Positions 4,434 to 20,657 of a stretch of 64,000 nucleotides of DNA are shown here, piece after piece. Numbering within the stretch: position 1 is the stretch's first letter; every line of letters begins with the position of its first letter. The notes beneath the pieces were generated by a model. It did no database searches. It was given only the letters and a program-made list of their open reading frames with translations, and was not told where the DNA came from. Both the position numbers and the translations under genes were made by a program. The DNA is taken from the sequence record NZ_CP031103.1; one strand, written 5' to 3'. The DNA comes from a plasmid.

Positions 4434-5051
4434 ATGAAAGTTATCTCTTTTCTGAATCCTAAGGGCGGAAGCGGTAAAACTACCGTGACAATCAACGTTA
4501 GTACCAGCATTGCAAAAAAACATCGCGTAGCAGTTGTCGACACAGATCCACAGCAAAGCCTGGCTAACTGGAACAAAGCAGAAAAAGCAAACTTCGATGT
4601 TTTTACTGCAGCATCTGAGAAAGATGTCTATACCATCAGAAAAGAACTGGCGGACTATGACTATGTCATCATCGATGGTGCTGGCGCTCTTTCTGTTATA
4701 ACTGCAGCTGCTGTGATGGTTAGTGACTTGGTCATCATTCCGGTTACGCCGTCACCTCTTGATTTTTCTGCCTCGGGTGCAGTTATCAGTGTTCTTGAAG
4801 CACAGTCGTATAACAGACCGGTAGAATGCCGTTTCCTTATTACTCGCAAAATCGAGCAAGCAACAATGCTCACTGTGTTACGGGAAAGTATCGCTGCAAC
4901 AGGTATCGCTTCCTTAAAGACTGCAATCACGCAGCGGCAGAGCTACGTTAAATCTGTGCTTGATGGCGAAACTGTATTTGATACCAACGATGGTGCAGCG
5001 AAAGGCGAGATAGAAGTTCTGGCAGGTGAAATCCTCAAGTTAGTTGATTAA
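4434..5051 (+). CDS. parF: ParF-type (type Ib ParA) partition ATPase
   Basis: MKVISFLNPKGGSGKTT deviant Walker A. 205 aa, close to ParF of TP228. Confidence 0.9.
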   Translation: MKVISFLNPKGGSGKTTVTINVSTSIAKKHRVAVVDTDPQQSLANWNKAEKANFDVFTAASEKDVYTIRKELADYDYVIIDGAGALSVITAAAVMVSDLVIIPVTPSPLDFSASGAVISVLEAQSYNRPVECRFLITRKIEQATMLTVLRESIAATGIASLKTAITQRQSYVKSVLDGETVFDTNDGAAKGEIEVLAGEILKLVD

Positions 5052-5103
5052 ATACACATTTACACATAAACTCAAATGAGTAAATGTGTATTGGAGTAAT
5101 TCG

Positions 5104-5343
5104 ATGAGTTTAATAAAGCAGAATCGCAATCAGCCACCACCTGCAAAGGTGATGACTTTCGGTGAAAACAGAGACTTAAATAAAGTCATTTCGACAGCTC
5201 CCGCGGCTGTACAAAAGCGTGTGAACTTCAACATGCCAGAAGATAAACATCAAAGACTGAAAGCCGCATGTGCTCGAAAAGGAGCATCGATTTCTGACGT
5301 GATGAATGACCTTGTCGATGCATGGCTAAAAGATAATGAGTAA
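5104..5343 (+). CDS. parG: ParG-type ribbon-helix-helix centromere-binding protein
   Basis: MTFGENRDL...KRVNFNMPEDKHQRLKAACARKGASISDVMNDLVDAWLKDNE resembles ParG. GGAG ribosome-binding site before the ATG at 5104. Confidence 0.85.
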   Translation: MSLIKQNRNQPPPAKVMTFGENRDLNKVISTAPAAVQKRVNFNMPEDKHQRLKAACARKGASISDVMNDLVDAWLKDNE

Positions 5344-5612
5344 ATGAGATTTTACTCCTAAACTCATTTACTCAAATGTTCATCGGGCTATTTGTCTACG
5401 CTTATCTAAATTGGGTTATGGTCAATGTTAGTTAACAAACCAAGAACTACGAGTCCGGTTCGAAGGATACAATCGTAGTGCTCGCCACAGCCTGTGACCG
5501 GGTTTGCCCGCGAACAGGCGAGGAAGCGCAATTGCTTAAGGATCTAAGGTAGCACTTACGCTCGAAACACGACCTTGCATATGCTTCTGTAGCATCATGA
5601 TTACTATCAATT

Positions 5613-5621
5613 TTATCCACA
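5613..5621 (+). promoter_or_regulatory. DnaA box (TTATCCACA) in the replicon origin region
   Basis: Exact consensus 9-mer. It is followed by an AT-rich tract at 5640-5730. Confidence 0.5.
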
Positions 5622-5730
5622 TATCCAACGGATAGATCAATTATTCAGATCAATATATAGATCATGTAAGTACAAAAGAGATCACCCTTTCTATAAGCAT
5701 ATGATCCATAATTAAAAAAATAGGATCCTG

Positions 5731-5836
5731 ACGGTTACTTTCATAAGAAAAGCGGTTACTTTCATGACCGTAGCGTTTACTTTCATAACTGAGGCGGTTA
5801 TTTTCATAACCTAGATGCGGTTACTATCATAATCAT
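5731..5836 (+). repeat. Iterons: five direct ~21-bp repeats (g)CGGTTACTTTCATAA upstream of repA
   Basis: Repeats start near 5733, 5754, 5776, 5797 and 5820 with 21-22 bp spacing. Confidence 0.8.
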
Positions 5837-5865
5837 GGCTGCTTTTACTCACTGGATGTGGATAA

Positions 5866-6738
5866 ATGGAAAATTCTGAAGCGCAGCAAAGTCCTTTTGC
5901 TATCAACAAGAAAGATTCTGGAGAAAGTTATGAACTGACTCCGAACAGTAATAAGACAGTTCAGCCTGTAGCTCTGTTACGTCTTAGCGTGTTTACTCCT
6001 GTGTCGCCAAAGGAAAAGGGAAAACGCGATTTTCTGATTGATGCTTCTGAAGAACTATCCAGCCTGGAGGTGGCTCGACAGGAAGGCTATACCAACATCA
6101 AAATTCAGGGCGCAAAGCTCGGCATGTCAACTGACTTTAAAACCTGGATTGGCATCATTTCTGCTTTCTCCAAGTACGGATATACTGCGGATAAAATTTG
6201 TCTGCCGTTCTCTGAGTTTGCGAGGATGTGCGGCCTCCGGCCAACAGACATCAATGGGCGTGCCCGTAACCGGTTAAGTGAGGCGCTGTTTAATCTGTCC
6301 AGCGTTACTCTCTCGTTTCGTAGCCAGGATGGAAAGCGCAGCCTCGTTACCCACCTTGTGCAGCGTGCCCAGCTGGACATGGATACTAATATGGTCGAAT
6401 TAGTCGGTGACCCAAGCCTCTGGGAATTATATCGCTACGATCATAAGGTTCTGCTTGGTCTGAAAGCACTCTCGGCACTCTCACGTAAGGAGTCTGCTCA
6501 ATCTCTCTATGTCTATTTCGAAAGCATGCCAGCAGGTACGCTGTACGTCTCTATGAAGCGTCTACGTGAAAGGCTTGCTATGGAATCTCAGGTTAAAGAC
6601 CAGAATTCAACCATACGACGTGCGATGAAGGATCTGAAGGGCATTGGTTATCTTGATTACAACGAAACCAAAAAAGGTCGGGAAATCATGTTCATTGTTC
6701 ATAACCGCTCGCCGCGACTCGCGTTGACCGTCGCGTGA
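5866..6738 (+). CDS. repA: Iteron-binding replication initiator RepA (RepFIB-like)
   Basis: 290 aa, flanked on both sides by iterons, with a DnaA box and AT-rich region upstream. Confidence 0.8.
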   Translation: MENSEAQQSPFAINKKDSGESYELTPNSNKTVQPVALLRLSVFTPVSPKEKGKRDFLIDASEELSSLEVARQEGYTNIKIQGAKLGMSTDFKTWIGIISAFSKYGYTADKICLPFSEFARMCGLRPTDINGRARNRLSEALFNLSSVTLSFRSQDGKRSLVTHLVQRAQLDMDTNMVELVGDPSLWELYRYDHKVLLGLKALSALSRKESAQSLYVYFESMPAGTLYVSMKRLRERLAMESQVKDQNSTIRRAMKDLKGIGYLDYNETKKGREIMFIVHNRSPRLALTVA

Positions 6739-6739
6739 A

Positions 6740-6960
6740 GGCGGTCACATTCATAACAATGACGCTACAAGGCGGTCATATTCATAATATTCCAATTAAA
6801 AGCGGTCGTTTTCATAAGTGCAGTCTATTCTGAGGGCTTTACGCCGGTCAGATGAGCCGAGTTTTATGAACGCAGCGATACCTTATCTATGATCATGTTA
6901 TGAAAGTAACCGCCAGTTATGAATGCTCCCGCCCATTTATGATAGTGACCGCTTTCCGTT
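6740..6960. repeat. Downstream iterons (direct, plus inverted copies at 6895-6960)
   Basis: GGCGGTCACATTCATAAC, GGCGGTCATATTCATAAT and AGCGGTCGTTTTCATAAG, then inverted TTATGAAAGTAACCGCC and TTATGATAGTGACCGC. Confidence 0.7.
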
Positions 6961-6995
6961 GGATGTTAGTTAAGCCATTTTTAACGTGAACAAGG

Positions 6996-7763
6996 CTAAC
7001 GATTGCCGCGCAGGAGCTGCAGCGCATCCTGAGTATCGAGTGAGAACCGGACCTGCTGACTGGCGGCCACATCGAGCGCAAAAATTTTCGTATACACCTC
7101 AGTCGACTCAAACTTCTCGTGCCCCATCAGGCCCTGGAGAACCTTGGGATGAACATGGCCATATAACAGGTGCATCGCGAAGCTGTGTCTGAACGTGTGC
7201 GGGCTGACCGGAATACTGAATCTCACCCCGTCCCGTTCTGCTGCCTCGACGGCACGCTCAAGCCAGTTGCGCACCGTGCGGTCGGTAACGCCCCAGACCG
7301 GCATGGCCCGGCGTTCACCTGTTAGCTTGTCGTCCTCGAATCTTTCCCGCGTGCTCGCAAACAGCCGACGCATTTCATCCACGTATCCGGGATCTGACAG
7401 CGGGATCACCCGGTTCGCACTTTTTCCCTTTTTCGGGCGACCGCCAGCTGTGCGGCGTTGTTTAGCCGTACGGACCACCACGTGCGGGATCTCATCATTG
7501 AGGTGAAAGTCCCTTCTTCTGAGTGCCAGTGCTTCGTTGAGGCGTGCGCCGGTGTTCCACAGCGTGTTAATGAACGCGTGCTGGTTCCAGTCAGGAAGGT
7601 AATGCAGCAGGCCAGCCACTTCCGGCGCCAGAAGGTACTTCGGCATCTCGGTATAGTGCTTGGCCATTTCCCGTAGCGACAGTGCCCGTCCGTAGTCAAA
7701 CGGTGCAGAAGTGGCAGTCACCTGCAGGGCAGGGGAGTGATGAACAAAAGCGGGCAGATTCAT
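6996..7763 (-). CDS. Tyrosine site-specific recombinase (plasmid multimer-resolution or integrase type)
   Basis: The C-terminal catalytic region HTFRHSFAMHLL...GH...TEVY carries the tyrosine-recombinase R..HxxR..Y signature. Confidence 0.8.
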   Translation of the reverse strand: MNLPAFVHHSPALQVTATSAPFDYGRALSLREMAKHYTEMPKYLLAPEVAGLLHYLPDWNQHAFINTLWNTGARLNEALALRRRDFHLNDEIPHVVVRTAKQRRTAGGRPKKGKSANRVIPLSDPGYVDEMRRLFASTRERFEDDKLTGERRAMPVWGVTDRTVRNWLERAVEAAERDGVRFSIPVSPHTFRHSFAMHLLYGHVHPKVLQGLMGHEKFESTEVYTKIFALDVAASQQVRFSLDTQDALQLLRGNR

Positions 7764-8323
7764 AACGCTCCTGGCGATAAGGATGCGCTACGCAAAATCT
7801 GGCCCGATAACCCCCGTTAACCGTGTCATTTTTCACGTAGCGCAATCTGGTGAAGTTCTGGTGCCATTTTCGCCGCCGCCGGCGTCGGAAACCACGGAAA
7901 AAACCCGCAGAGCCGGGATCTCACATTTTCCTGTTTCTGGAAATATACCATAAAAAGGAAAGAGAAAGTCTGGCAGGACGATCTGAAAAGGATCCAAAAA
8001 GGATCCTTTTGCCCTGGATGATGTGGTGATTGGGTGGTGGAAAGGGCCATATGATGTGTTCTGTGACAAAATACCCCCGGTGAGGCAGTGCTTCCTGAAA
8101 ATACAGAAAGCGGAAAGGGGGCAGGAAGGAGACGCTATTGCAAAGCCGTCGCGAACCAGTCTGAGCTTACACCGACGTTCGGGGACGCTCTGTTATACGG
8201 GCGGAAGCAGGTAAAGTGGAAGGGAATGGAAGCGATTAATATTTATGTATGAACGCCGGATGTGAATTCTGTACTAAGATCATGATAAAACCAGCCCGTG
8301 GTGTTTTATCCGCCTGAGGATAA

Positions 8324-8586
8324 TTGATGAGAGCAATTATTGCTGTTGTCTGCCTGACATCCGTTTCATGTACATCGCCTTATCCGAGTGCCATTCCGGA
8401 GCCGGTTTTCCACGGCTCAATAAGTTGCGATCCGAAGAAAAATAAATCTGAATGTATAAATGAGGGTAAAAGCGAATATGAGAAGGCTGCAAATTACGTC
8501 AAAATTTACGAAATGCAGTTAGGGGAGAAAGAACAGCAACTGGCAACTCAAAAGTATGCATTAAGCGATACCAGTGCTACAGGTGC
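8324..8586 (+). pseudogene. Lipoprotein gene interrupted at its 3' end by IS1 copy 2
   Basis: Signal peptide with lipobox LTSVSC. The ORF runs into the IS1 terminus at 8587. Confidence 0.5.
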
Positions 8587-8601
8587 GGTAATGACTCCAA
8601 C

Positions 8602-9105
8602 TTATTGATAGTGTTTTATGTTCAGATAATGCCCGATGACTTTGTCATGCAGCTCCACCGATTTTGAGAACGACAGCGACTTCCGTCCCAGCCGTGCCAG
8701 GTGCTGCCTCAGATTCAGGTTATGCCGCTCAATTCGCTGCGTATATCGCTTGCTGATTACGTGCAGCTTTCCCTTCAGGCGGGATTCATACAGCGGCCAG
8801 CCATCCGTCATCCATATCACCACGTCAAAGGGTGACAGCAGGCTCATAAGACGCCCCAGCGTCGCCATAGTGCGTTCACCGAATACGTGCGCAACAACCG
8901 TCTTCCGGAGCCTGTCATACGCGTAAAACAGCCAGCGCTGGCGCGATTTAGCCCCGACGTAGCCCCACTGTTCGTCCATTTCCGCGCAGACGATGACGTC
9001 ACTGCCCGGCTGTATGCGCGAGGTTACCGACTGCGGCCTGAGTTTTTTAAGTGACGTAAAATCGTGTTGAGGCCAACGCCCATAATGCGGGCGGTTGCCC
9101 GGCAT
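8602..9105 (-). CDS. insB: IS1 InsB
   Basis: 167 aa. Confidence 0.9.
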
Positions 9106-9299
9106 CCAACGCCATTCATGGCAATATCAATGATTTTCTGGTGCGTACCGGGTTGAGAGGCGGTGTAAGTGAACTGTAGCTGCCATGTTTTACGGCAGTG
9201 AGAGCAGAGATAGCGCTGATGTCCGGCGGTGCTTTTGCCGTTACGCACCACCCCGTCAGTAGCTGAACAGGAGGGACAGCTGATAGAAACAGAAGCCAC
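9024..9299 (-). CDS. insA: IS1 InsA
   Basis: 91 aa. Confidence 0.9.
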
Positions 9300-9354
9300 T
9301 GGAGCACCTCAAAAACACCATCATACACTAAATCAGTAAGTTGGCAGCATCACC

Positions 9355-9627
9355 CGAGTTTTTGGTGCATTCAAAGCTGTTCACCATGAACAGATCGACA
9401 ATGTAACAGTTGAACAGCATGTAACACCTAATAGAACAGGTGAAACCAGTAAAACAAAGCAACTAGCACATGAAATTGAACACCTGAGACAACTTGTTAC
9501 AGCTCAACAGTCACACATAGACAGCCTGAAACAGGCGATGCTGCTTATTGAATCAAAGCTGCCGACAACACGGGAGCCAGTGACGCCTCCCGTGGGGAAA
9601 AAATCATGGCAATTCTGGAAGAAATAG
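9355..9627 (+). pseudogene. C-terminal fragment (~90 codons) of a gene cut by IS1 copy 2
   Basis: The open frame directly abuts the IS1 end: ...FGAFKAVHHEQIDNVTVEQHV...SHIDSLKQAMLLIESKLPTTREPVTPPVGKKSWQFWKK*. It is out of frame with the lipoprotein fragment on the other side of the IS. Confidence 0.3.
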
Positions 9628-9862
9628 CGCTTTCAGCCGGCAAACCGGCTGAAGCCGGATCTGCGATTCTGATAACAAACTAGCAACACCAGAACAGCCC
9701 GTTTGCGGGCAGCAAAACCCGTACTTTTGGACGTTCCGGCGGGTTTTTGTGGCGAGTGGTGTTCGGGCGGTGCGCGCAAGATCGATTATGTTAAAAACGA
9801 CAGGATTCATGAAAATTATCAGAATTGTGCAGGATGGGAAAACCATCCTGCACACCCATTGA

Positions 9863-12800
9863 TTAGATATCTAATTTAGGGAGGTTATTGACAATTTTCT
9901 GAGTTTCCAGACTGACAGTGATAACTCGTAGGAACAGCTCTAATGGGTATCTAGGGTTATCCATTGTTTCTATTGCCCAGTCATTAGCATCGTTCACAAT
10001 ACCGCTATCTTTATGGGTAGAGACACCTTGCCGCTCCATCACCCATTCAAGCGCAGGTTTTCCATTCACAATGTAGTCATAGGCTTCAATTGGAATGTTT
10101 TTTATGCGAATTTTACTGTTATAAATGACCGTGTCTTTTTCACCTTTTTTGGCAAATTTCATCTTCTCAACATAGAAATCGTCTTTACTCAACTGTGAGT
10201 AACTCAAAGAACCTGTGTCGATATCAGCTTTGTAGGGTTCAACTGTTTCATATTTTAAATGCAATTCAGCCAACTCACGACCAAAATTGGAAAAAATCAA
10301 AAAGTCATCAAATTTTTTAACACATGGAATGCGAGGTAATTCCTTAGTTAAATTATCAGCATATCTAAACCGATACTCCTCTGAGTGCAAAAGACCATAA
10401 ATATAATAAAAAATATCTTCTTTTTTTATTATATTAGCTCCAGAGTAAAAATCATTGAATAACTTCAGGCAGTCATCAGTTATCGCATCAAACCTTTCCA
10501 CATCATCAGACAATTGTTTTTTACTATACAAGTACAATGGAAAGCATTGAGCACCAGCATCCATTGAATTTAAATCAAATATACAATTTGATATTATTGC
10601 TGAAAACCCTTTCTTACCACCAAGCCCCGTGATACAGATAATTACATTATCAGATTCATTACTCGGGAAGATCTGTGGCATTTGATAAACACAGTTATTG
10701 AAGTGTCTATTGAAGTACATATGTTGTTTTGTGAAAGGCCTGTATAGTGATACTCTGAAATCATCATTTGAAATATCATGATAATATCCCTTGGATACAT
10801 CATTGAAAACTTCCCTTGTCCAACTCATTCTTTTTGAGTCTAATATAACAAAATCCTTTGGCTCATCAGTACCATTATATTTGCTATATCTTTCGACCTC
10901 TTCATTGTAGAAATGAATCATCCTTGATATATTTTTTTTAAGAGATGAAAGAGAATATTGATAGCACCAAGCATCTCTATTGGTTTTAACTCCATTGGAG
11001 TAGTTTTCAAAAACAAAAAAAGCACTTTTATTTTTTTTACTACCTAATTCAATAAAATCATTGAAGCTATCATCTCGCTGATTCAGCCAATCGTTGTAGG
11101 CATCTGGTGTGATTTTCTGCCAGCCATGCGTTTTCTCAATACCGTCAATACTGCCAAAATCGGAAATCGTCTCCAGCTTTTCTTCTTTTGTCAGGTAATC
11201 ACCAATATCATGAAAATAAATCTGACCCGTCTGTGTTGCTACCGGATTTTTTACCAGAATAGCAATCACAATCGGCGTTCTTGTTCCCTGACCAAAAACG
11301 TTATCTTTTTCTTTGCGGCGAACCTCTCCTGACGTTCTAGCATTCCCTCTCAGATGGAAAAAATACAGGCTACTGAACTCTTCCGCCAGACACTTACGAA
11401 GTCCATCAGCCGAGTTAGAGTCGATATACCCGCCATTCGTGACAAATCCTATAACACCTTGTTCACCGATACGATCACTCGCCCAGCGTATTGCACGTAT
11501 ATATGAATCATAAAGCGAACTTTTCAATGTTGCAGTTGTGTATTTTGCATAGGTTAATTCAATTCTTTTATCTAGAAGAGGATATTTTACATTAGCATTA
11601 TTATCATTCCCTACACTTTGGCCTGACGAGTAAGGAGGGTTACCGATAATCACCCGAATATCCAGAGCCTTCTGCCGTTTACGACGCTCACTGTTATCGA
11701 CCAATACCGCACTGACCAGATCATCCTTCTCATACATTTCAAAGGTGTCAGTCAGACAAATCCCTTCAAACGGCGTGTACTCTGATTCTTCCGTGATGCC
11801 GTGATACACCGCCTCAATATTAATAGCGGCAATGTAATAGGCTAACAGGACGATTTCGTTGGCATGGATTTCATTTTTAAACTTGTAAGCCAGTTTATCT
11901 GACGGGATCAGACCACTTTGCAGCAGACGGGTGATAAACGTACCGGTGCCGGTGAACGGGTCAAGAATATGCACACCTTTGTCGGCGAGTGTTTGTCCGA
12001 ACTCCTGTTTCAGCACGTCATTCACGCTGTGAATAATAAAATCAACCACCTCAACAGGCGTATACACAATGCCCAGACGCTCCGTCATTCTCGGGAACGC
12101 ATTTCTGAAAAACTTATCGTACAACTGTACGATAATCTGCTGCTTACCTTCTGCGGTGGTAATGCCGTCCGCACGCATTTTTACCGACTCATAGAAGCTG
12201 TTCAGCGTGCTGGCTTCTTTTTCGAGATGATGCTCCTGCAACGTGTTAAGCACGTTCTGCATCGCCATACTCATCGGGTTATGGTCGGTAAAATTGTAAT
12301 CCGCAAACAGGGCATCAAAAACCGGCTTGGTTATCAGGTGCTGAGCCAGCATTTCAATGATTTCATCATCGGAAACACTGTTATTCAGGTCATCACGCAG
12401 TTCATCTGCAAATGCCCTGAAGGCACTGATTTCTATTTTATTCCCCGGATTTTCGAGAATGCCGTGAATGCGGTCGATATGTGTGCGGGCAATTTTAGCA
12501 ATATCGTTCGCCCAGTCTTCCCAGTGATGCCGGTTACCGCATTTTTTAACGATTTTTGCGTACAGGGCGCGCTCAATCTCACCAACGGAAAATTCAATAT
12601 CAAACTGCTCAGGAGCGGGACTCACGGCTGAACCAATGCCACTGCTTTTACGCGCTTTTCCTGCTATCTCAGATTTTTTCGTCTGCCGTTTGGTTTTCTT
12701 CACCACTTTATCGGCTACCGCGATCACTTCCATTCTGCCGGTATCTTTACCGTTAAACTCCAGCTTGTTGATCATGGCATCAAAGCGGTCATCATGCGCC

Positions 12801-14752
12801 CTGAGTGCATTCAGCACCTGCCAGACAACACGGTAAGCCTGATTATTGTTCAACGCATTCTCCGGCTCTTCTCCGGCGGGAATGACAACCGGCAGAATGA
12901 CGTAGCCCAGCTCCTTACCTTCAGCACGCCGCATCACACGTCCGACAGACTGCACCACATCCACCTGAGAGCTTCTCGGCGTTAAAAACAACACCGCATC
13001 CAGAGAAGGCACATCCACGCCTTCAGATAAACAACGGACGTTAGACAATATCCGGCAGACATTTTCATCCGTGTCCGCTTTCAGCCATTCAATTTTGGAT
13101 TTTTTCTCAGTGGCATTCATGCTGCCGTCAACGTGCTTCACCTGACACTGAAGTTTTAATGATGGGTCAATCGCCTTATCCGGTGCGGTTTCCCTGAGAA
13201 GTTCGATCTCGGATGCCTGATAAGCCTCAACCACTGCTCCGAACATTTCCGTGATCAGTTTAGAACTGACCTTATGCGTCTTTCCGCGAAAGTCTTTTTC
13301 TATCACCTGACAGAACGCAACAGCCCGTTTCATCGCATCAGGGTGAACGCCATCTGCCCCCGCCAGTCCCTGCTTTGCCAGTGCTTTCCAGCAACCCACA
13401 ATCTTTGCCGCATCATCGACTTTGAGCTGATTATTTTCATCCTTCAGCAGAGACTGAATGCGGCGGCTGACATGCTTTTCTTCCACGGCAAGCACAATAA
13501 CTTTGTAATCACACAAAATGCCCAACTGGACGGCTTTAGAGAAGGTAATGACATACAAATCATCCCCATAAAGACTTTTGTCATCCATTGAGCATAGGGT
13601 AACTCCCTCAGTCTCTTTCGCATCATCTCCAAAAATTCGTGGGGTCGCGGTCATGTACAGGCGTTTTTGACCGGCAATATAGGCATTGTCGTGAATACGA
13701 ACAAAGGCAGACTCATCATCCCCTTCAAAGGTGGCACCCGTTGTACGGTGGGCTTCATCACAAATGATGAAATCAAACGCAGGAAAACCCAGCTTTTGCG
13801 CCTGATGGATAACCTCAACAGAGTGGTAGGTAGAAAACACCACGTTCATATAAGGCGGCTTATCACTGCCGAAAATATCCGGCTGATTAAACGCTTTGAC
13901 GAGGCTGTTCGCATTCGTGGTCGCCGGATATTTCAGGTCGCTGATACCAACAACGACATTGTCATCATGGTTTTTCTTACCCACATCACTGTCAGAGCAG
14001 ACAGCAAAACAGCGCAGGTCTATCAGCGTATCCTGTGTCCATTCATCCAGCGTCTGACTCAACAATGCCAGACTGGGCACAAGGAACAGTACGGTTTTAC
14101 CTCTTCCGGCAACGGCTTCAGCAATACGCAGAGAGGTGAAGGTTTTTCCTGTGCCGCACGCCATAATGAGCTTGCCCCGATCGGCAGTCGCCAGCCCTCT
14201 TTTAACGGCTTCAAGCGCGGGAGTCTGATGAGGCCGGAGTTGCTTTTTGGCTTTCATCACCGGCTTGTATGCCGGATCAAAATCGAATTGTGACCAGTCC
14301 AGTGCACTTTGTTCAAGGTCTGTCAGGCTTAACGCAGTGACAGGAACGGCCTTGTCACGCAGCATGTTTTTGGCTTCTTCCGTCCAGTTGTCCGTAGAGG
14401 CAACGATATAGCGAAGCGTAAAATACGTTTTATCGGAGGCAGCCAGAAAACTATCAATATCCTTTTTGGCGATTTTAGTCTGATTGTAGTTTTTGCACTG
14501 GATAGCATGAAACTCCCCCGTTTTGGTTACGGCGACCAAATCAATGCCATCATCTTTTTTCTTCGTGATCCCAACGGTTTCACCGTACTGAGAAACCCAT
14601 CCGCCATAGCTCAGCACGTCACTGTACAGCTCGGCATATTTAGGTTCATGGAGGAAATACTGCACACAAAGGTTTTCAAAGGTTGTACCTTTGTCCCGCT
14701 GTGTTGGTGAAGCCTGTTCAATTTTTGTCAGCAATGCAGAAAGTGCATTCAT
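9863..14752 (-). CDS. Type ISP restriction-modification enzyme (single polypeptide, LlaGI/LlaBIII-like)
   Basis: 1629 aa. Mrr-like PD-(D/E)xK motifs (DDGIDLVAV...EFHAIQCKNY). SF2 motor with Walker A MACGTGKT and DEAH ICDEAHR. Gamma-type N6-adenine methyltransferase motifs DPFTGTGTF and NPPYS. C-terminal target-recognition domain. Lower GC than its surroundings. Confidence 0.8.
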   Translation of the reverse strand: MNALSALLTKIEQASPTQRDKGTTFENLCVQYFLHEPKYAELYSDVLSYGGWVSQYGETVGITKKKDDGIDLVAVTKTGEFHAIQCKNYNQTKIAKKDIDSFLAASDKTYFTLRYIVASTDNWTEEAKNMLRDKAVPVTALSLTDLEQSALDWSQFDFDPAYKPVMKAKKQLRPHQTPALEAVKRGLATADRGKLIMACGTGKTFTSLRIAEAVAGRGKTVLFLVPSLALLSQTLDEWTQDTLIDLRCFAVCSDSDVGKKNHDDNVVVGISDLKYPATTNANSLVKAFNQPDIFGSDKPPYMNVVFSTYHSVEVIHQAQKLGFPAFDFIICDEAHRTTGATFEGDDESAFVRIHDNAYIAGQKRLYMTATPRIFGDDAKETEGVTLCSMDDKSLYGDDLYVITFSKAVQLGILCDYKVIVLAVEEKHVSRRIQSLLKDENNQLKVDDAAKIVGCWKALAKQGLAGADGVHPDAMKRAVAFCQVIEKDFRGKTHKVSSKLITEMFGAVVEAYQASEIELLRETAPDKAIDPSLKLQCQVKHVDGSMNATEKKSKIEWLKADTDENVCRILSNVRCLSEGVDVPSLDAVLFLTPRSSQVDVVQSVGRVMRRAEGKELGYVILPVVIPAGEEPENALNNNQAYRVVWQVLNALRAHDDRFDAMINKLEFNGKDTGRMEVIAVADKVVKKTKRQTKKSEIAGKARKSSGIGSAVSPAPEQFDIEFSVGEIERALYAKIVKKCGNRHHWEDWANDIAKIARTHIDRIHGILENPGNKIEISAFRAFADELRDDLNNSVSDDEIIEMLAQHLITKPVFDALFADYNFTDHNPMSMAMQNVLNTLQEHHLEKEASTLNSFYESVKMRADGITTAEGKQQIIVQLYDKFFRNAFPRMTERLGIVYTPVEVVDFIIHSVNDVLKQEFGQTLADKGVHILDPFTGTGTFITRLLQSGLIPSDKLAYKFKNEIHANEIVLLAYYIAAINIEAVYHGITEESEYTPFEGICLTDTFEMYEKDDLVSAVLVDNSERRKRQKALDIRVIIGNPPYSSGQSVGNDNNANVKYPLLDKRIELTYAKYTTATLKSSLYDSYIRAIRWASDRIGEQGVIGFVTNGGYIDSNSADGLRKCLAEEFSSLYFFHLRGNARTSGEVRRKEKDNVFGQGTRTPIVIAILVKNPVATQTGQIYFHDIGDYLTKEEKLETISDFGSIDGIEKTHGWQKITPDAYNDWLNQRDDSFNDFIELGSKKNKSAFFVFENYSNGVKTNRDAWCYQYSLSSLKKNISRMIHFYNEEVERYSKYNGTDEPKDFVILDSKRMSWTREVFNDVSKGYYHDISNDDFRVSLYRPFTKQHMYFNRHFNNCVYQMPQIFPSNESDNVIICITGLGGKKGFSAIISNCIFDLNSMDAGAQCFPLYLYSKKQLSDDVERFDAITDDCLKLFNDFYSGANIIKKEDIFYYIYGLLHSEEYRFRYADNLTKELPRIPCVKKFDDFLIFSNFGRELAELHLKYETVEPYKADIDTGSLSYSQLSKDDFYVEKMKFAKKGEKDTVIYNSKIRIKNIPIEAYDYIVNGKPALEWVMERQGVSTHKDSGIVNDANDWAIETMDNPRYPLELFLRVITVSLETQKIVNNLPKLDI

Positions 14753-15093
14753 CGTTGATATCCTTAATGTCCTTTATTTGCTGGGGTTATCAGATCCCCC
14801 CGACACGTTTAATTAATGCTTTCTCCGCCGGAGATCGACGCACAGCGTTCTGTGCTCTATGATGTTATTTCTTAATAATCATCCAGGTATTCTCTTTATC
14901 CCCTTTATCACCATACGTAGTGCGAGTGTCCACCTTAACGCAGGGCTTTCCGTCACAGCGCGATATGTCAGCCAGCGGGGCTTTCTTTTGCCAGACCGCT
15001 TCCATCCTCTGCATTTGGGGTTTGAGGAGTAACGGAACAGTAAACGCCGTTAAGAAGTCAATTTAAATAGCCATTAATATACTAATCAATAAA

Positions 15094-15652
15094 TTACCCC
15101 TCTTCATTGAAAACTCTCAGCTCCCCCTTACTGACGGATTCCGGCACTGTAAATGAATAGCGGGACTCCTTGTATTTGATGCCCAGCATCTTGATAGCCA
15201 CCATCACCAGCGACAGGTGCTCCGGATCTTTCATGGCAAGCCGGGCCATTTCGGCATCGGTCGCCAGCGCCTGGAAGCCCATCGAGAAGACCTCTGTTCT
15301 AGTTGTGCCCTCAATGCCCAGTTCGCCGTAGACCTTGCCCACATAACCGGTTCGGCGCGTTTATCGGTGTGCCGTAAGGCAGGTTGACAGTCGTGGCCAG
15401 TTTGTTGGTGACTTTCACTTTGCCGACGAGGGGTCCGGCCCGGTTCACGACGGGAGGACGGCAGATCGGGAAGGTCACTGGCGCGGGTGGTTCGACCCAC
15501 GCCCAGGCGGCTGCTACGCGCGCGCTCAGGACCCGACTGGCGGCTCTTTCTGCGCGGGCCGGTTTCCCTGTCTGCAGTACGGCCAAACGGTCTCTTACCC
15601 CTGCCTTTGGTACCCTTCCGGCCCTTACGGCCACGCTTATCCCCCCTTTCAC
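15094..15652 (-). pseudogene. Frameshifted ORF remnants in a GC-rich decayed segment
   Basis: ORFs 15311..15652 and 15094..15342 join into ...VKVTNKLATTVNLPYGTPINAPNR/YVGKVYGELGIEGTTRTEVFSMGFQALATDAEMARLAMKDPEHLSLVMVAIKMLGIKYKE... only with a +1 shift near 15345-15360. Confidence 0.35.
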
Positions 15653-16424
15653 CGATCCAGTCCTTCACCTTGTCACCGACCACATCGGTCAGGCTGCGCG
15701 GCTTCGTTTTGGACGAATCAATCAGCGCGTCCAGACGGTCGATCACCTCGCTGTGCTGCTCTTTGCTCTGCGCATCCTCCTTACGGCGGATCGCGTCCAG
15801 GCGGGCGCTTTCGGTTTGCTCCTGGTTTTTCTTCTCCCCGATCCCGATGGTGCTGGCGGGCTTCGGTTCGGCGTTGGCCGCATTCGCTGGTGTGGCTGGT
15901 GGCGTGTCCGGCGTGGCATCACCCGCGCCCGGTTCGCTCCCGGCCTGTCCGCCAAACGGCCGCTTGAGCGCGCCCCATAGCTTCAGCGCCTTATCTTTGG
16001 CGTAGGCTTTAGCGCGCTTCGTACTGCTGATATCACGCTCGGAAAGCGCTTCCTTGACCTCATCCGCCATACCTTTGGCTTCTTTGGCGGCCATCCAGAA
16101 AGAACTTCCCACGGCCACGCCTGCAGTATCTGCCGCCTCGGTTCCGGCCAGTTGGTTTCCATCCTTGCCACCCAGCAGACCTACCGCCCGTTTCAGCAGT
16201 GACGATGAGCCACCAGCTGATGACTCCTCATCGTCGTCGCCGCGACTGGAGCTGCGGTTAAAGCGGCGGATCTCCACCTTGTTGGCAAAGCGGCCGTCAT
16301 CACCCAAATAAAATCCGTTGGCGCGGTTGCCATTCCGTGGTGGTGAATCGGCGACAGTGCGTGCGGGTTTTGGTGTCGCGGGTGCAGCCTCATCGGTCAG
16401 GTGGAGTGCATCGGTCCTTGGCAC
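15231..16424 (-). pseudogene. Frameshifted ORF: low-complexity, charged, Ala/Gly/Lys-rich protein
   Basis: 397-aa frame. Codon usage is good to about ...KGRGKRPF and then degenerates. It merges by frameshift into the 15311..15652 frame. Confidence 0.3.
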
Positions 16425-16474
16425 ATCGCCCCGTAAATCAGCAGCAATACACGGGACTCGTCACGCAGCTGAGC

Positions 16475-16696
16475 CTAGTCGATTTCATATACCGCCTTAC
16501 CGTTGTCGCCCGGGTAATACAGACCGCCCATTGCCGTCAGCGCGCGGTAACGCTCCATGGCCAGCGCGAGAACCGGCCGATCGTCAGCTGTCTTGTCATC
16601 GAGGCGCACGCGGTAACCCAGACCGGTCATCAGCCCCGTCGGGTCCTCAATCATGATCGTGGCATCGAACGCGCCTGACGCGTTACGCACCGCCAT
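16475..16696 (-). CDS. Hypothetical 73-aa protein
   Basis: Strong third-position GC codon bias. ATG lies 4 nt after the stop of the upstream small ORF. Confidence 0.4.
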   Translation of the reverse strand: MAVRNASGAFDATIMIEDPTGLMTGLGYRVRLDDKTADDRPVLALAMERYRALTAMGGLYYPGDNGKAVYEID

Positions 16697-16699
16697 AGC

Positions 16700-16858
16700 T
16701 TACAGACGCTCGCGGATCTTCACAATCGAGCCTGGTAGTGGTGTCAGGGCGATAACGTGAAGGGCGTTGGTGGTGAGCGTACCGGTCAGCATGACAGGTG
16801 CCTGCCGGGTGGCCAGTGAGACGGCCACTACGTTAATGGGCGCAGATGTTGATTGACT
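16700..16858 (-). CDS. Hypothetical small ORF (TTG start, AAGGGG ribosome-binding site), preceded by a leader hairpin
   Basis: MSQSTSAPINVVAVSLATRQAPVMLTGTLTTNALHVIALTPLPGSIVKIRERL. The sequence is low in complexity, so the gene is doubtful. Confidence 0.2.
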   Translation of the reverse strand, partial: SQSTSAPINVVAVSLATRQAPVMLTGTLTTNALHVIALTPLPGSIVKIRERL

Positions 16859-17251
16859 CAAAGTTTGCCCCTTAAAAAAAGAGCGCCCGAAGGCGCCTAA
16901 ACCGTTACCGTTAATGAGTCGAAAATAGAACGGAATTACTACAACAGAGGTGACGGCTCCTATCGTCTTTCGGGCCGTCAAAATCAATGTTACACAACAA
17001 GGTTAGGATGTGTAAATTGCCAATAACCCCAGTTTGTGACACCGCGCACGCATGAAGGGCGGGGCGCCTCGCAGCCATGTCGGGCTGGTGGCCAGCGCCG
17101 CGAACCGAACACAACACGGAAAAAGCATTGTATTTGCTCGCGTCATCCTCTACGAATTCCTTGCTTCTTGATGCGGACCTGCTGCAAAGCAGGACACCGG
17201 CTCAATTACGACCCCCTGGCCTCGGCCGGGGGTTTTCGTTTCTACGGCCGG

Positions 17252-17892
17252 TTACGCCGTCTTATCAGCCTCACCACCCTGACGTTTCTTCGCCGCGCGG
17301 CTGCGTGATTTCCGCGGGACTTCTGTCGGTTTCTCCTCCGCATTATCTGCCTCCACGGGCGGCGCCGGTTGTGCCACTTCAGGCTCCACTACCGCCGGGT
17401 TCGGGTTACCTGCTGCGAGTGTAGCCATCCGCTGGGCGATAAATTGATGGCGGTCATAGTCCGCAATGTCCTTCATGCGACCCAGCGTAGCGTTGAGATT
17501 GCCGTTGCGGGACATATGGACACAGCCCAGCATCCCATCAGCATTTCATTCACTGGCGTCTGGTCAACACGGACTTCGCCGATCGAACGGGCGACGGCAT
17601 CGAGCACAACTTCGAAGTGATCCGGGCTGAGACGGAAGATAGCCACCATCAGGCTGGAAATGGCGTTTGCTACACCAACAGAGAGGGGATCACGGCCGTG
17701 GGACTTGTCAGCCACCGCGTTATTGACGCAGTGCTGCAGGAAGTTGCCTGCCATCGCGCTGCGCAGGACCTCTGACGGGTCTGCCTCTTCCATGGCCTGG
17801 GCCGATTCTGGCAGTGGATTCGGGTCCTGTGGTGGCAATGGCTGCAGGTCGGTTTCAGCAATGACTTCTGGCTGAGTTAATTCTTGCATGAT
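17252..17892 (-). pseudogene. Frameshifted gene: acidic N-terminus, basic C-terminus
   Basis: ORFs 17473..17928 (probable start MQELTQPEVIAETDL at about 17892) and 17252..17533 overlap and need a frameshift near 17520 to fuse. An intrinsic terminator-like hairpin follows at 17200-17235. Confidence 0.35.
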
Positions 17893-18041
17893 TATTCCTT
17901 TCGGGGCTGGGTTATTTACACTACACAATTATGATCTGCGTCTTAGGATGTTTTGTGCAGCATATCTGTCTGTAAGTCCTGAGCAAGGGGCCTTTTGTCT
18001 TTAAGCGTTAATGGCCACCAGCTCATACACTCGGAGAGCGC

Positions 18042-18920
18042 ATGATCCTGACCCAACCGAAAAAGACCGCTGTGCTGTACCACAACGACGCCGACGGCTT
18101 CGCGTCAGCCCTTGCCGCCTGGCTTAGATACGGCGAGGAGGCCCATTACATCCCGGTTCGCTACGGTGAGCCGGTACCGCCGCTGCCGAACGGTACCCTC
18201 GAGGTATTCATCCTTGATTTCAGCTACAACCGCAAGACGTGTGACCATCTGGCCAGCAAGTACCTCCTGCAGGTGATCGATCACCACCAGACCGCGCGTG
18301 ACGAACTGGCCGGGGCCGTGTATGCCATCTTCGACATGAGTCGCGCCGGTTGTGAGCTCGCCTGGGCGTTTTTCCACCCGGATAAGCCGCTGCCGGACCT
18401 GCTGGCCTACGTCGCCGATCGGGATTTGTGGAAATGGGCGCTGCCGAACTCGCAGGAGGTCAACGCCTGGGTGGCCATCCTGCCGCCGACCTTCGAACGC
18501 TGGGCGGAGGTGCTGCGCGACGGCATCGGTGAGCGGGAAATGACGATGGGCTCGGCGTTGCTGGCCAACCAGGAGCGCCAGCTGCACGCCCTGGCCCGAC
18601 AGGCCCGGTTTACCATCTTGTTCGGCAAACCGGCCGCCGTGGTGAACAGTGCGCTGCTGCATTCCGAGCTGGGCCACCTGCTGGCCACTATGCACCCGCA
18701 GCTGGCGCTGGTGGCGGTGTATAACGATCTGCCGGACGGCTCGCGTAAGTATTCCCTGCGTACCCACCGTGACAACCTCGATGTGAGCGCGCTGGCGCGC
18801 CAGTTCGGAGGCGGTGGCCATCGCCGGGCAGCGGGCTTCGTCCTGCCAGCTAACCTGGAGCAGCGGCTCGGCGGCGAACTGGCCACGAACCTGCAGGCGG
18901 CAAAAGGAGTCGAATCATGA
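18042..18920 (+). CDS. DHH/DHHA1 family phosphoesterase (NrnA-like nanoRNase / pAp phosphatase fold)
   Basis: LYHNDADG (DxD motif), VIDHHQT (DHH motif), GGGGHRRAAGF (DHHA1 GGGH motif). 292 aa. Confidence 0.75.
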   Translation: MILTQPKKTAVLYHNDADGFASALAAWLRYGEEAHYIPVRYGEPVPPLPNGTLEVFILDFSYNRKTCDHLASKYLLQVIDHHQTARDELAGAVYAIFDMSRAGCELAWAFFHPDKPLPDLLAYVADRDLWKWALPNSQEVNAWVAILPPTFERWAEVLRDGIGEREMTMGSALLANQERQLHALARQARFTILFGKPAAVVNSALLHSELGHLLATMHPQLALVAVYNDLPDGSRKYSLRTHRDNLDVSALARQFGGGGHRRAAGFVLPANLEQRLGGELATNLQAAKGVES

Positions 18921-19153
18921 TCGGCTGGCTGAAGGAAAGGATCAAATGGTGGGTAGACGGTAAAGAAATGGCGGAGCTCAACCGCTGGCGCTTCCAGCAT
19001 AACTATTACCGCTTGTGCCTGTATGACATTCAGCCGATACGCGAAACGCTGGAAAGCCTGCAGGCCCGGGTAAACATGAAGTCCGTAGACTTCGGCCCTG
19101 GGCCTTATGGTGTAGACGGTATCCGGGCTCGCTGGCAGGCAACCCGTAAATAA
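18917..19153 (+). CDS. Hypothetical 78-aa protein, translationally coupled to the DHH gene
   Basis: ATGA start/stop overlap with the upstream gene. Trp-rich. Confidence 0.45.
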   Translation: MIGWLKERIKWWVDGKEMAELNRWRFQHNYYRLCLYDIQPIRETLESLQARVNMKSVDFGPGPYGVDGIRARWQATRK

Positions 19154-19333
19154 ATACGAAATAATATAATTGCATTACAAATAAGTCTTACTTGTAACTA
19201 TTATTGCGAGTAAGACTTTAATTATGCCGCCGTCTGCTGGCGATGGTAATAGCTATGCGTAATAACATCCGTATCTGCTTAATAACTTCTCTTTTAACGC
19301 TCTCTACGTTGAATAGTCATGCCTTCGATATTG

Positions 19334-20100
19334 GGTAATGACTCCAACTTATTGATAGTGTTTTATGTTCAGATAATGCCCGATGACTTTGTCATGCAGC
19401 TCCACCGATTTTGAGAACGACAGCGACTTCCGTCCCAGCCGTGCCAGGTGCTGCCTCAGATTCAGGTTATGCCGCTCAATTCGCTGCGTATATCGCTTGC
19501 TGATTACGTGCAGCTTTCCCTTCAGGCGGGATTCATACAGCGGCCAGCCATCCGTCATCCATATCACCACGTCAAAGGGTGACAGCAGGCTCATAAGACG
19601 CCCAGCGTCGCCATAGTGCGTTCACCGAATACGTGCGCAACAACCGTCTTCCGGAGCCTGTCATACGCGTAAAACAGCCAGCGCTGGCGCGATTTAGCCC
19701 CGACATAGCCCCACTGTTCGTCCATTTCCGCGCAGACGATGACGTCACTGCCCGGCTGTATGCGCGAGGTTACCGACTGCGGCCTGAGTTTTTTAAGTGA
19801 CGTAAAATCGTGTTGAGGCCAACGCCCATAATGCGGGCGGTTGCCCGGCATCCAACGCCATTCATGGCCATATCAATGATTTTCTGGTGCGTACCGGGTT
19901 GAGAAGCGGTGTAAGTGAACTGCAGTTGCCATGTTTTACGGCAGTGAGAGCAGAGATAGCGCTGATGTCCGGCGGTGCTTTTGCCGTTACGCACCACCCC
20001 GTCAGTAGCTGAACAGGAGGGACAGCTGATAGAAACAGAAGCCACAGGAGCACCTCAAAAATACCATCATACACTAAATCAGTAAGTTGGCAGCATCACC
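19334..20100 (-). mobile_element. IS1 copy 3 (767 bp, insB frameshifted by a 1-bp deletion)
   Basis: Nearly identical to copy 2 except gcccc->gccc at about 19600, which splits insB into ORFs 19349..19594 and 19591..19851. insA 19770..20045 is intact. Confidence 0.9.
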
Positions 20101-20201
20101 GAAGGCAGGATAGATTTGTTAATCGCGATCGGAGATCATCAGTCACAACAGAGCTCCCTGCGTTATGAGGGGTCGTCTCAGAATTCGGAAAATAAAGCAC
20201 G

Positions 20202-20657
20202 CTAAGGCGTAGTCACCCCGTGACTCCCCCGCGCCGATGCAGCGAGCTTCGTTCCGTCTTGCAGTGACGCAATCAGCGGGCAGGAAACGTTCCCTTTCCG
20301 CGCATGGCAGGCGCACACCAGTTCAGACAGCACGGCCTCCATGCGTGCCAAGTCGGCCATCTTCTCGCGCACATCCTTGAGCTTGTGCTCGGCCAGGCCG
20401 CTGGCTTCCTCGCAATGGGTGCCATCCTCCAGCCGCAGTAGCTCGGCGATTTCGTCCAGGCTAAAGCCCAGCCGCTGGGCCGATTTCACGAACCGCACTC
20501 GTGTTACATCCGCCTCGCCATAGCGGCGAATGCTGCCATAGGGCTTGTCTGGCTCCGGCAGCAGGCCCTTGCGCTGGTAGAACCGGATGGTCTCCACATT
20601 GACCCCGGCCGCCTTGGCAAAAACGCCAATGGTCAGATTCTCAAAATTAATTTGCAT
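20202..20657 (-). CDS. merR: MerR Hg(II)-responsive regulator
   Basis: MerR-family helix-turn-helix plus the C-terminal Cys triad. Divergent from merT. Confidence 0.9.

Follow-up and report, generated by a model that had tools for sequence, protein, structure and literature searches.

Gene and domain architecture

The window analysed here, namely the whole stretch of 64,000 nucleotides taken from a plasmid (NZ_CP031103.1), carries an intact Type ISP restriction-modification gene on its minus strand at 9863..14752. In the ORF listing it appears as a single ORF with an ATG start, which encodes 1629 aa and is by far the longest of the region; the translation has no internal stop, and the chance of 1629 stop-free codons is arithmetically about (61/64)^1629, roughly e^-78. 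These coordinates and this length are exactly those of the original prediction, to which only the minus strand, left unstated there, has to be added, and the plasmid setting that it named agrees with a ParA / Rep3 (RepB-family) replicon at 4434-6738. The protein is identical to RefSeq WP_114388509.1, already named a Type ISP restriction enzyme. As reference enzymes we use LlaGI (pEW104; PDB 5ffj) and LlaBIII (pJW566; PDB 4xqk), the Lactococcus lactis prototypes of the type.

In Pfam, all six modules of the protein score above the curated cut-offs, and they follow each other in the order of residues 36-158, 170-609, 743-869, 872-1126 and 1247-1606. The first is an Mrr-family nuclease domain (aa 36-158, 14279..14647, minus strand like all that follow; Mrr_cat_2, E 9.3e-33), with motif I GTTFE at 22-26, motif II DDGID at 67-71 and motif III AIQCK at 83-87, the last being the Q-x-K variant, not E-x-K. 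Residues E38, D74, D78, Q92 and K94 of LlaGI matter for cleavage (PMC2790908); their equivalents here are E26, D67, D71, Q85 and K87, and the motifs align with those of LlaBIII. An SF2 helicase-like translocase comes next (aa 170-609, 12926..14245; ResIII 170-372, Helicase_C 533-609), with its motor motifs intact, namely Walker A GTGKT at 200-204, DEAH at 332-335, TATP at 368-371 and motif VI QSVGRVMR at 601-608. It is followed by the Type ISP coupler domain (aa 743-869, 12146..12526), which matches PF22240 ISP_coupler with E 7.9e-49 over profile positions 1-126 of 126, and by a gamma-class N6-adenine methyltransferase (MTase; aa 872-1246, 11015..12139; N6_Mtase at 872-1046, Eco57I), in which motif I DPFTGTGTF (FxGxG) at 931-939 comes before motif IV NPPY at 1038-1041. 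The target-recognition domain (TRD) is C-terminal (aa 1247-1606, 9935..11014), as seen from PF18135 Type_ISP_C (E 1.5e-108) and from the alignment to the TRDs of LlaGI and LlaBIII. In two sources (PMC3874165; PMC4666363), a Type ISP enzyme is defined as one polypeptide with an Mrr-like nuclease, a translocase, (a coupler), a gamma-MTase and, at the C-terminus, a TRD, and the Pfam domain order found here is the same. The claim that nuclease, motor, methylase and TRD lie in one chain of Type ISP therefore stands, in agreement with the two domains diagnostic of the type, ISP_coupler and Type_ISP_C, and all the motifs that it named are present. Between the window allele and the allele of plasmid pDY612-5, codons 1-1000 differ at 78 codons synonymously and at 7 non-synonymously; thus the gene is under purifying selection, with every catalytic motif conserved and the architecture intact and colinear.

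Comparison with known enzymes

The alignment to the prototypes that had been proposed as a check was run, and it agrees with the assignment. By phmmer against PDB, residues 14-1629 align end to end with residues 26-1576 of LlaBIII (4xqk) at 1259 bits, and residues 165-1629 with LlaGI-deltaN (5ffj) at 1216 bits, each in a single alignment stretch. Against the lactococcal LlaGI-family enzyme on pJM4E, the identity is 43% over 1638 columns, and 36-55% per domain. On the whole, the window enzyme resembles LlaGI and LlaBIII in domain order, catalytic motifs and full-length colinear alignment, and in being plasmid-borne and stand-alone, while it differs from them in its overall sequence (about 43% identity, as measured against the pJM4E member), in its Proteobacterial host and in the residues with which the TRD reads DNA.

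PADLOC returns two full-length single-chain REase-MTase models, and the better of the two (2276 bits) bears the label 'REase_MTase_IIG', which would favour, instead of Type ISP, an enzyme of Type IIG/IIL that resembles MmeI or DrdV, or a methyltransferase like PglX of BREX. In the same direction, residues 781-1625 match the Type IIL enzyme DrdV (7lo5) with E 5.9e-148, and the MmeI-family Type IIL/IIG enzymes indeed have a homologous unit of coupler-like domain, gamma-MTase and TRD; they also methylate one strand of an asymmetric site, as Type ISP enzymes do (PMC3874165). However, the match to 7lo5 is limited to the coupler, MTase and TRD part and has no counterpart of the motor or the nuclease, and the label is a name given by the PADLOC database, the second-best model (1472 bits, Type I label) being likewise full-length. 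Residues 1-640 form a complete Mrr nuclease and SF2 motor, with Walker A, DEAH and motif VI intact, which is absent from Type IIG/IIL and PglX proteins. The Type IIG/IIL enzymes such as MmeI, DrdV and BpuSI are chains that have no ATP-driven translocase and cleave at a fixed distance, and they are ruled out by the complete SF2 motor; PglX, an MTase without nuclease or helicase that belongs to a pglZ/brxC/brxL cluster, is ruled out by the presence of both domains, and the flanking ORFs tested match no defence model of PADLOC, BREX partners included, and none in Pfam or NCBIfam. The domain order of a Type IIG or PglX-like protein, which the original prediction had named as a refutation, is hence not what we find, and we give this reading almost no probability.

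An equally negligible probability goes to the view that the protein depends on partners as one part of a multi-gene system, for instance as the HsdR-like subunit of a classical Type I system or as a Dnd-associated restriction enzyme. NCBIfam does give weak matches to Type I R subunits and to dnd_restrict_1, the latter scoring 78 bits where 600 are required, but these are far under the curated cut-offs and cover the generic helicase region only, and the protein has its own MTase and TRD. Furthermore, the source plasmids described below have no hsdM, hsdS or dnd genes; when intact, these small plasmids carry besides the ISP gene only traD, mobA, mobX, an HTH gene and rep, and among the neighbours in the window no R-M partner genes are found with Pfam, NCBIfam or PADLOC. 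We are therefore highly confident that the gene product is self-contained and belongs to the LlaGI/LlaBIII family of Type ISP restriction-modification enzymes, with a mechanism expected to be that of the prototypes.

Such enzymes had been described as known mainly from Gram-positive hosts, so that a copy on an enterobacterial plasmid seemed noteworthy. Our survey does not bear this out, given the RefSeq entry and the many Proteobacterial relatives; the lactococcal origin applies only to the characterised prototypes. At least 22 enterobacterial plasmids carry enzymes that are at least 99% identical over the first 1000 residues, and close relatives labelled by PGAP are found on 27 PLSDB plasmids from Escherichia, Klebsiella, Citrobacter, Salmonella, Proteus, Morganella and others. 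More distantly, full-length homologues with 57-64% identity exist in dozens of Proteobacterial genera, and a scan of species-representative genomes gives 282 relatives, of which the best 80 come almost all from Proteobacterial taxa. Already in 2016, 552 Type ISP sequences were brought together in one study, with targets mapped in Helicobacter and Mycobacterium (PMC4872093).

The small-plasmid fragment and probable expression of the gene

A ColE10-type MOBQ mobilisable plasmid of about 9.5 kb is the source of the 5.66-kb piece that bears the gene and is caught between two direct IS1 copies. Plasmid contig L093 matches positions 9355-15016 with 98.1% identity, 5662 bp that run unbroken through the TRD. 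At the left end lies the 3' remnant of an HTH_17-like gene of the small plasmid, cut by IS1 (9355..9627, plus strand), as seen from the L093 gene positions and from the L093 homology that begins at 9355. At the right end, just upstream of the ISP start, lies the 3' remnant of mobX (14865..15016, minus strand), the homology to L001, L092 and L093 stopping at 15016. We also considered this shared junction as a recombination hot spot, a candidate rejected on the IncN copy, which matches mobX for 87 bp further. The intact plasmids of about 9.5 kb, L092 and L093, carry the same allele (P0129), with the TRD core 100% and the N-terminal 1000 residues 99.7% identical, and their DNA is 98.1-98.7% identical to window positions 9355/9526-15016; they retain the traD-mobA-mobX and HTH-rep3 genes, while the window has only the 5.66-kb fragment. 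Two further alleles, WP_274413140.1 (E. coli pDY612-5, ColE10, MOBQ, 9.6 kb) and WP_088475159.1 (IncN pOSUMEAT2), are 99-100% identical over residues 1-1000 and have the same flanking DNA on both the mobX and the HTH side and the same GC profile, but their TRD core is only 51-56% identical to that of the window allele; in contrast to them, the window gene has been separated from its replicon and lies between IS1 copies. No Rfam family matches within 8000-20500, where we looked for ColE1-type and other replicon RNAs and for regulatory RNAs.

Nine nucleotides past the ISP stop, folding reveals a hairpin with a 12-bp perfect stem (9826..9854, minus strand; -24 kcal/mol, z -5.4, none of 200 shuffles as stable), which is a probable transcription terminator, found by folding only and not picked up by the consensus terminator scan. 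That scan, for promoters and terminators over 9300-15300, gives counts no higher than expected from shuffles.

In the source plasmids the ISP gene follows mobA-mobX on the same strand, and in the window this operon is cut 264 bp upstream of the start codon. Consequently the gene might be Type ISP by descent and yet be silent or act as a methyltransferase only, the IS1 capture having removed its native upstream operon. The truncation at 15016 of mobA-mobX, which precedes the gene on the small plasmids, speaks for it, as does the coding strand upstream, which has no good promoter match; over 14753-15016, a simple promoter scan finds no convincing sigma-70 site. At least one sister allele, moreover, is a pseudogene (L004, with a premature stop at codon 970), showing that decay of copies does occur in this family. 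Against it, the ISP ORF and all its catalytic motifs are intact, and the 264 bp upstream, conserved with the source plasmids, have been kept and may hold a promoter of the gene itself. ORFs upstream on the same strand could also provide read-through transcription, and among at least six independent contigs the segment keeps an identity of 99.6-99.98%, so that no decay is visible. We consider loss of expression or of cleavage unlikely; the expression of the gene, its enzymatic activity and its target sequence are inferred.

IS1 copies and mobility of the segment

The fragment is abutted by IS1 copy B (8587..9354, minus strand), 768 bp long, with IRL at 9332-9354 and Pfam matches to InsA and the IS1 transposase besides the BLAST match. 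Copy C (19334..20100, minus strand) is 99% identical to copy B by BLAST and has the same orientation. Between the fragment and copy C lies a co-travelling cargo of 4.3 kb (15017..19333), fused to the ISP fragment and comprising a 397-aa ORF, small ORFs and a DHH phosphoesterase. The last, at 18042-18920 on the plus strand, is the only neighbour recognised by family searches; the 397-aa ORF at 15231-16424 (minus strand) has no family match, and for the neighbours at 15094-17928 no significant match comes from Pfam, NCBIfam, PADLOC or PHROGs. In contigs L005-L009 the cargo is always linked to the ISP gene, with 99.6-99.98% identity.

One of these contigs, L005, is a Leclercia chromosome, where the same segment lies within a 15.8-kb island bounded by IS1 (4571-20396). 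The island is flanked by a 9-bp target duplication, AGAAGCCGG, and contig L096 has the matching empty site, uninterrupted. The IS1-associated segment has thus transposed into a Leclercia chromosome, this chromosomal copy having all the marks of an IS1 composite transposon, i.e. two IS1 ends, a duplication of 8-9 bp and an empty site. The chromosomal version also carries a PDC-S06 candidate defence ATPase. In the window, two direct IS1 copies bracket the segment, and no target duplication exists around either copy (B or C) or around the two as a pair; among the IS1 copies there, A alone has one, of 8 bp, TGAAATTA. The window copy may have reached its plasmid through transposition and a later rearrangement, through cointegration by IS1 or through homologous recombination. 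Within PLSDB, window positions 1-25000 are covered to at most 29% by any plasmid, the matches being mer, IS and integron modules only, which indicates that the host plasmid is not in PLSDB.

The TRD allele and its target

The TRD of the window gene is a distinct allele. Against its sister alleles, residues 1-1000 are 99-100% identical, the TRD core 36-75% and the last ~130 aa 94-95%, with the closest other allele (P0122) at 75% in the TRD core. Sliding identity, the allele comparison and the GC profile together delimit an allele-specific variable region of about aa 1050-1480 (10313..11605, minus strand). LlaGI and LlaBIII share this evolutionary pattern of a conserved N-terminal chassis, a variable MTase-C/TRD and conserved last ~100-130 residues; the pattern of conserved chassis and variable TRD agrees with that published for the two enzymes (PMC3553950) and for the family as a whole (PMC4872093).

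The base composition follows the same division. The first ~1000 codons have a GC content of 0.44-0.52, against 0.513 in the whole window, and the last third of the gene falls to 0.31-0.39, with 0.31-0.33 in the core of the variable region. Since the same profile is repeated in three other alleles, the low GC, common to all four alleles compared, belongs to the variable MTase-TRD region as a feature of the family. The original prediction of a recent AT-rich import has therefore to be dropped, the low GC being restricted to the variable MTase-C/TRD third. Horizontal transfer did bring the gene here, the evidence for it being the IS1 and small-plasmid context, not the base composition.

A distinct TRD allele on a nearly identical N-terminal chassis, as in LlaGI versus LlaBIII, leads us to expect a specificity that differs from the sister plasmid alleles, and judged from its sequence the window enzyme probably has a target different from theirs. 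A target different from those of LlaGI and LlaBIII is also expected, because the reading residues of the TRD differ. For a guess at the target we used the partial code of PMC4872093, with LlaGI positions mapped by hand through the LlaGI/LlaBIII TRD alignment. Under this code, A at LlaGI position 1118 and N at 1131 would leave position -1 unread, in conflict with R at 1125, which the paper predicts to read G at -1. N at 1368, as in LlaBIII, would give A at +3; K at 1226 and N at 1228 would give G or A at +4; and, both uncertain, N at 1326 would give T at +5 and R at 1286 with C at 1327 would give G at +6. The target might then be something like 5'-TNA(G/A)TG-3', a guess from a partial code with conflicting signals that is rather improbable and on which we do not rely.

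Expected mechanism and implications

The mechanism is carried over from the prototypes, as described in PMC4666363, PMC3553950 and PMC3874165; the literature searched holds no functional data for the window protein or any enterobacterial Type ISP member. The clamp of MTase and TRD would read a short, continuous and asymmetric target of 6-7 bp, and host DNA would carry m6A on one adenine, in one strand only. On unmodified DNA, target recognition would activate the SF2 motor, and the enzyme would depart from its site and move downstream at 1-2 ATP per bp. When two enzymes from head-to-head sites collide, their Mrr-type nucleases would make multiple nicks, which together would break both strands somewhere between the sites, at no specific position. 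Replication would leave one site of each head-to-head pair methylated, which would be enough to protect the host.

Overall, the window gene is a defence gene of an ordinary kind, rightly identified and carried on a mobile segment bounded by IS1, and its protein is already known; the importance beyond right annotation is limited, in that the family mechanism is well understood and automated pipelines already name the exact protein correctly. What the analysis documents, by a target duplication and an empty site, is that a complete R-M system of one gene has been moved into a chromosome by an element bounded by IS1. Beyond this we propose tentatively, and with more doubt than conviction, that the TRD allele may set an uncatalogued recognition sequence, that the IS1-bounded segment of 10-16 kb may be a transposable defence cassette, and that the co-travelling DHH phosphoesterase, 397-aa ORF and small ORFs are possibly linked in function to the enzyme. 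If true, the cassette would move a Type ISP enzyme among plasmids, both small ones and large ones with metal resistance, and the chromosome. The window case is one more change of specificity by a swapped TRD on a conserved chassis, here within a clinically relevant pool of enterobacterial plasmids, where such enzymes could act as a barrier to the exchange of plasmids and phages, and mapping the target of this allele would extend the partial recognition code of the TRD by one data point.

Identification of a Type ISP enzyme

The gene under study (9863..14752, minus strand) starts with ATG and comprises 1629 codons, an open frame with a chance probability of about e^-78 by our own arithmetic. 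Its coordinates in the original prediction are exact, and all motifs named there are found in the translation. The protein carries the Mrr motifs GTTFE (residues 22-26), DDGID (67-71) and AIQCK (83-87), the SF2 motor motifs Walker A GTGKT (200-204), DEAH (332-335), TATP (368-371) and motif VI QSVGRVMR (601-608), and, in the MTase, the AdoMet motif DPFTGTGTF (931-939) and the catalytic NPPY (1038-1041). As a refinement, motif III of the Mrr-like nuclease is not of the E-x-K form but of the Q-x-K form, which is the signature of Mrr and Type ISP nucleases (PMC3874165; PMC2790908). Residues E38, D74, D78, Q92 and K94 matter for cleavage in LlaGI, as shown by mutagenesis (PMC2790908), and their counterparts here are E26, D67, D71, Q85 and K87.

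Six Pfam modules, each over its curated threshold, follow one another in the Type ISP order: Mrr_cat_2 (residues 36-158), ResIII (170-372), Helicase_C (533-609), ISP_coupler (743-869, E 7.9e-49), N6_Mtase (872-1046) and Type_ISP_C (1247-1606, E 1.5e-108). In a PDB sequence search, residues 14-1629 align in one stretch with LlaBIII (4xqk, 1259 bits) and residues 165-1629 with N-terminally deleted LlaGI (5ffj, 1216 bits), whereas the next match, the Type IIL enzyme 7lo5, reaches residues 781-1625 only. Against the lactococcal LlaGI-family enzyme on pJM4E, identity is 43% across 1638 aligned columns, with 39% in the nuclease, 44% in the motor, 38% in the coupler, 55% in the MTase and 36% in the TRD. 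NCBIfam matches to Dnd-associated proteins and Type I R subunits are weak, far under their cut-offs, and cover the generic helicase core only. The domain order of a Type IIG or PglX-like protein is not seen; the Pfam order, the alignments and the conserved cleavage residues all argue against it, and therefore the identification of the predicted product as a Type ISP enzyme stands.

Alleles, composition and proposed mechanism

Compared with its sister alleles, the protein is 99-100% identical over residues 1-1000, drops to 36-62% at about residues 1150-1450, and returns to 94-97% in the last ~130 residues. The same conserved/variable/conserved relationship is known between LlaGI and LlaBIII (PMC3553950) and in the Type ISP family as a whole (PMC4872093). 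Within the clade of at least 99% N-terminal identity, at least three TRD groups are found: the first is the window allele, the second (E. coli and Providencia, 1625 aa) has a core 75% identical to it, and the third includes several alleles with cores of 51-56% identity. The window TRD is absent from the PLSDB plasmids, where the best match is 56%. Between the window allele and that of pDY612-5, codons 1-1000 have 78 synonymous but only 7 non-synonymous differences, which indicates purifying selection and hence what appears to be a working enzyme. A sister allele on a 9.6-kb plasmid contig (L004, 2244-7121) has a premature stop at codon 970, separating the coupler from the MTase, so the gene is inactivated in some copies of that plasmid family.

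The gene has a G+C content of 0.437 against 0.513 in the window, and had been regarded as probably a recent AT-rich import. This argument fails: the first 3 kb have 0.44-0.52 and the shortfall lies mostly in the last third, with 0.31-0.39 from about codon 1200 on, and the same profile is seen in three other alleles. The low G+C content is therefore a property of the variable region of the family and no sign of recent arrival.

The mechanism would follow the prototypes, from which its steps are carried over (PMC3553950; PMC3874165; PMC4666363). The MTase-TRD clamp would read a continuous asymmetric target, and an m6A-type modification would be placed on one adenine of one strand only. At an unmodified target, the enzyme would hydrolyse ATP, let go of the site and translocate downstream, spending 1-2 ATP per bp; where two enzymes that set out from head-to-head sites meet, a collision complex would form, in which the Mrr nucleases would nick repeatedly until a break arises at a variable position. 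After replication, one site of each head-to-head pair would stay methylated, and the host would thus be protected. Mapping the partial recognition code (PMC4872093) by hand gave partly conflicting signals, and the resulting target, of the form 5'-TNA(G/A)TG-3', is a guess that we consider unlikely to be correct.

Capture from a small plasmid

The gene lies in a block of 5.66 kb (9355-15016) that is 98.1% identical, unbroken through the TRD, to the ~9.5-kb plasmid-like contig L093; a second such contig, L092, shows 98.7% identity from 9526 onward. Both have the gene order (traD-)mobA-mobX-ISP-HTH-rep3, and the TRD core of their enzyme (P0129) is 100% identical to that of the window allele. Of the neighbouring genes, only remnants of two survive in the window: 152 bp of the mobX 3' end (14865-15016) and, at 9355-9627, the 3' portion of the HTH gene, which IS1 copy B (8587-9354) severs. 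On this sequence evidence, the block is a capture from a small plasmid. Apart from the ISP gene, no relevant gene is encoded on the source plasmids, and the putative enzyme is shown to be self-sufficient. The upstream mobA-mobX operon is gone, 264 bp of upstream DNA being kept, and a consensus scan finds no clear promoter in them, which makes expression the chief reservation about the enzyme here. After the stop codon, a hairpin (9826-9854) with a 12-bp perfect stem (-24 kcal/mol, z -5.4) probably acts as a terminator.

IS1-bounded segment and chromosomal island

At 15016 the block is fused to 4.3 kb of other cargo (15017-19333), and the segment of 9979 bp runs to IS1 copy C (19334-20100), which is oriented as copy B. 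The cargo is always linked to the ISP gene and nearly missing from PLSDB (24% matched, in one Leclercia plasmid only). It contains a DHH/DHHA1 phosphoesterase (18042-18920, plus strand; phrog_4771, E 1.6e-65), a 397-aa ORF (15231-16424, minus strand) with no significant match in Pfam, NCBIfam, PADLOC or PHROGs, and several small ORFs.

Besides the window, six assemblies have the ~10-kb segment with 99.6-99.98% identity. Among them, three are ~10-kb contigs with IS1 ends on both sides, one is a shorter contig (L010) that has the segment's ISP side and terminates in an IS1 end, one is a mer-linked contig laid out as the window, and one is a 4.62-Mb Leclercia chromosome contig (L005). In the last, the segment is part of an island of 15,826 bp (4571-20396) inside a terminator-like hairpin, with IS1 ends facing outward and a perfect 9-bp direct repeat, AGAAGCCGG, at its flanks. 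The metagenome contig L096 has both chromosomal flanks joined with one repeat copy (97.5% identity), that is, the empty site. Judging from the repeat and the empty site, the island reached the Leclercia chromosome by IS1 transposition.

Around IS1 copies B and C in the window, no duplication is found; the segment may have entered the plasmid through IS1 cointegration, through homologous recombination, or by transposing and later being rearranged. IS1 copy A (1625-2392) shares only 91% identity with copies B and C and has an 8-bp target duplication of its own (TGAAATTA), so it is a simple insertion that arose independently. At its right-hand IS1 end, the island is 99.5% identical to this divergent copy. 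The island also has a 733-aa AAA_13/SMC-like ATPase (17120-19321, minus strand), matching the PADLOC candidate defence family PDC-S06 (E 4.7e-236), and a 118-aa ORF without family match (16072-16428, minus strand); the window lacks both and has 8120-8586 in their place. In addition, window positions 7567-8119 match the island interior (19427-19979) over 553 bp with 99.3% identity, overlapping the 5' end of the tyrosine recombinase gene and reaching upstream, which suggests that island and plasmid share a history beyond the ISP segment.

The host plasmid

The plasmid setting of the original prediction is borne out by ParA (4434-5051), a Rep3/RepB-family initiator (5866-6738) and a tyrosine recombinase (6996-7763, minus strand); this module (4434-7763) has counterparts of ~95% identity in Leclercia, Lelliottia and Citrobacter plasmids. 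Of the window's first 25 kb, no more than 29% is covered by any PLSDB record, and the plasmid is therefore a mosaic absent from that collection. A mer operon (20200-28150 region) with a Tn3-family transposase (25176-28148) and a pco/sil copper-silver resistance cluster (32700-52750 region), comprising a multicopper oxidase, a P-type ATPase, an RND/MFP/OMF efflux system and two CusS-like sensor kinases, mark the replicon as a heavy-metal resistance plasmid. It also has a Gabija-like gene pair (55544-58113, minus strand), in which a 520-aa AAA_15 and OLD-type TOPRIM protein matches GajA (E 1.4e-101) and the overlapping downstream 340-aa gene matches short GajB models (E 1.1e-46). Beside the pair, an AT-rich patch (G+C 0.38) encodes a 332-aa HNH-domain protein (54089-55087, minus strand) whose match to a Type IV methyl-directed restriction enzyme model is weak (E 3.6e-08); since the two adjoin, they may form a second small defence cluster.

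Occurrence of the family

The identical 1629-aa sequence is already in RefSeq, named there as a Type ISP enzyme (WP_114388509.1; also AXF67338.1 and MBW9402166.1). By megablast, 27 PLSDB plasmids carry the gene, most of them with the PGAP label already; the majority are ~9.5-kb ColE10/MOBQ mobilisable plasmids from Escherichia, Klebsiella, Citrobacter, Salmonella, Proteus, Morganella and Raoultella, and a few are IncN and other large plasmids. By tblastn, proteins of 22 plasmids have at least 99% identity over residues 1-1000, and 12 of 5426 complete E. coli genomes have the gene. A scan of one genome per species gives 282 relatives. Among the best 80, most are full-length, the identity is 57-64%, and nearly all belong to Proteobacteria, with Pseudomonas, Paraburkholderia, Stenotrophomonas, Acinetobacter, Nitrosomonas and Geobacter among the genera. 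An earlier compilation of 552 Type ISP sequences, with targets mapped in Helicobacter and Mycobacterium, is that of Kulkarni et al. (2016; PMC4872093). The view that such systems are mainly Gram-positive is true only of the two biochemically studied prototypes. As databases already list this very protein by name and the family occurs widely among Gram-negative bacteria, the finding is neither novel nor surprising; what is new here is the context only, namely a distinct TRD allele, the capture from a small plasmid and the IS1-bounded mobility.
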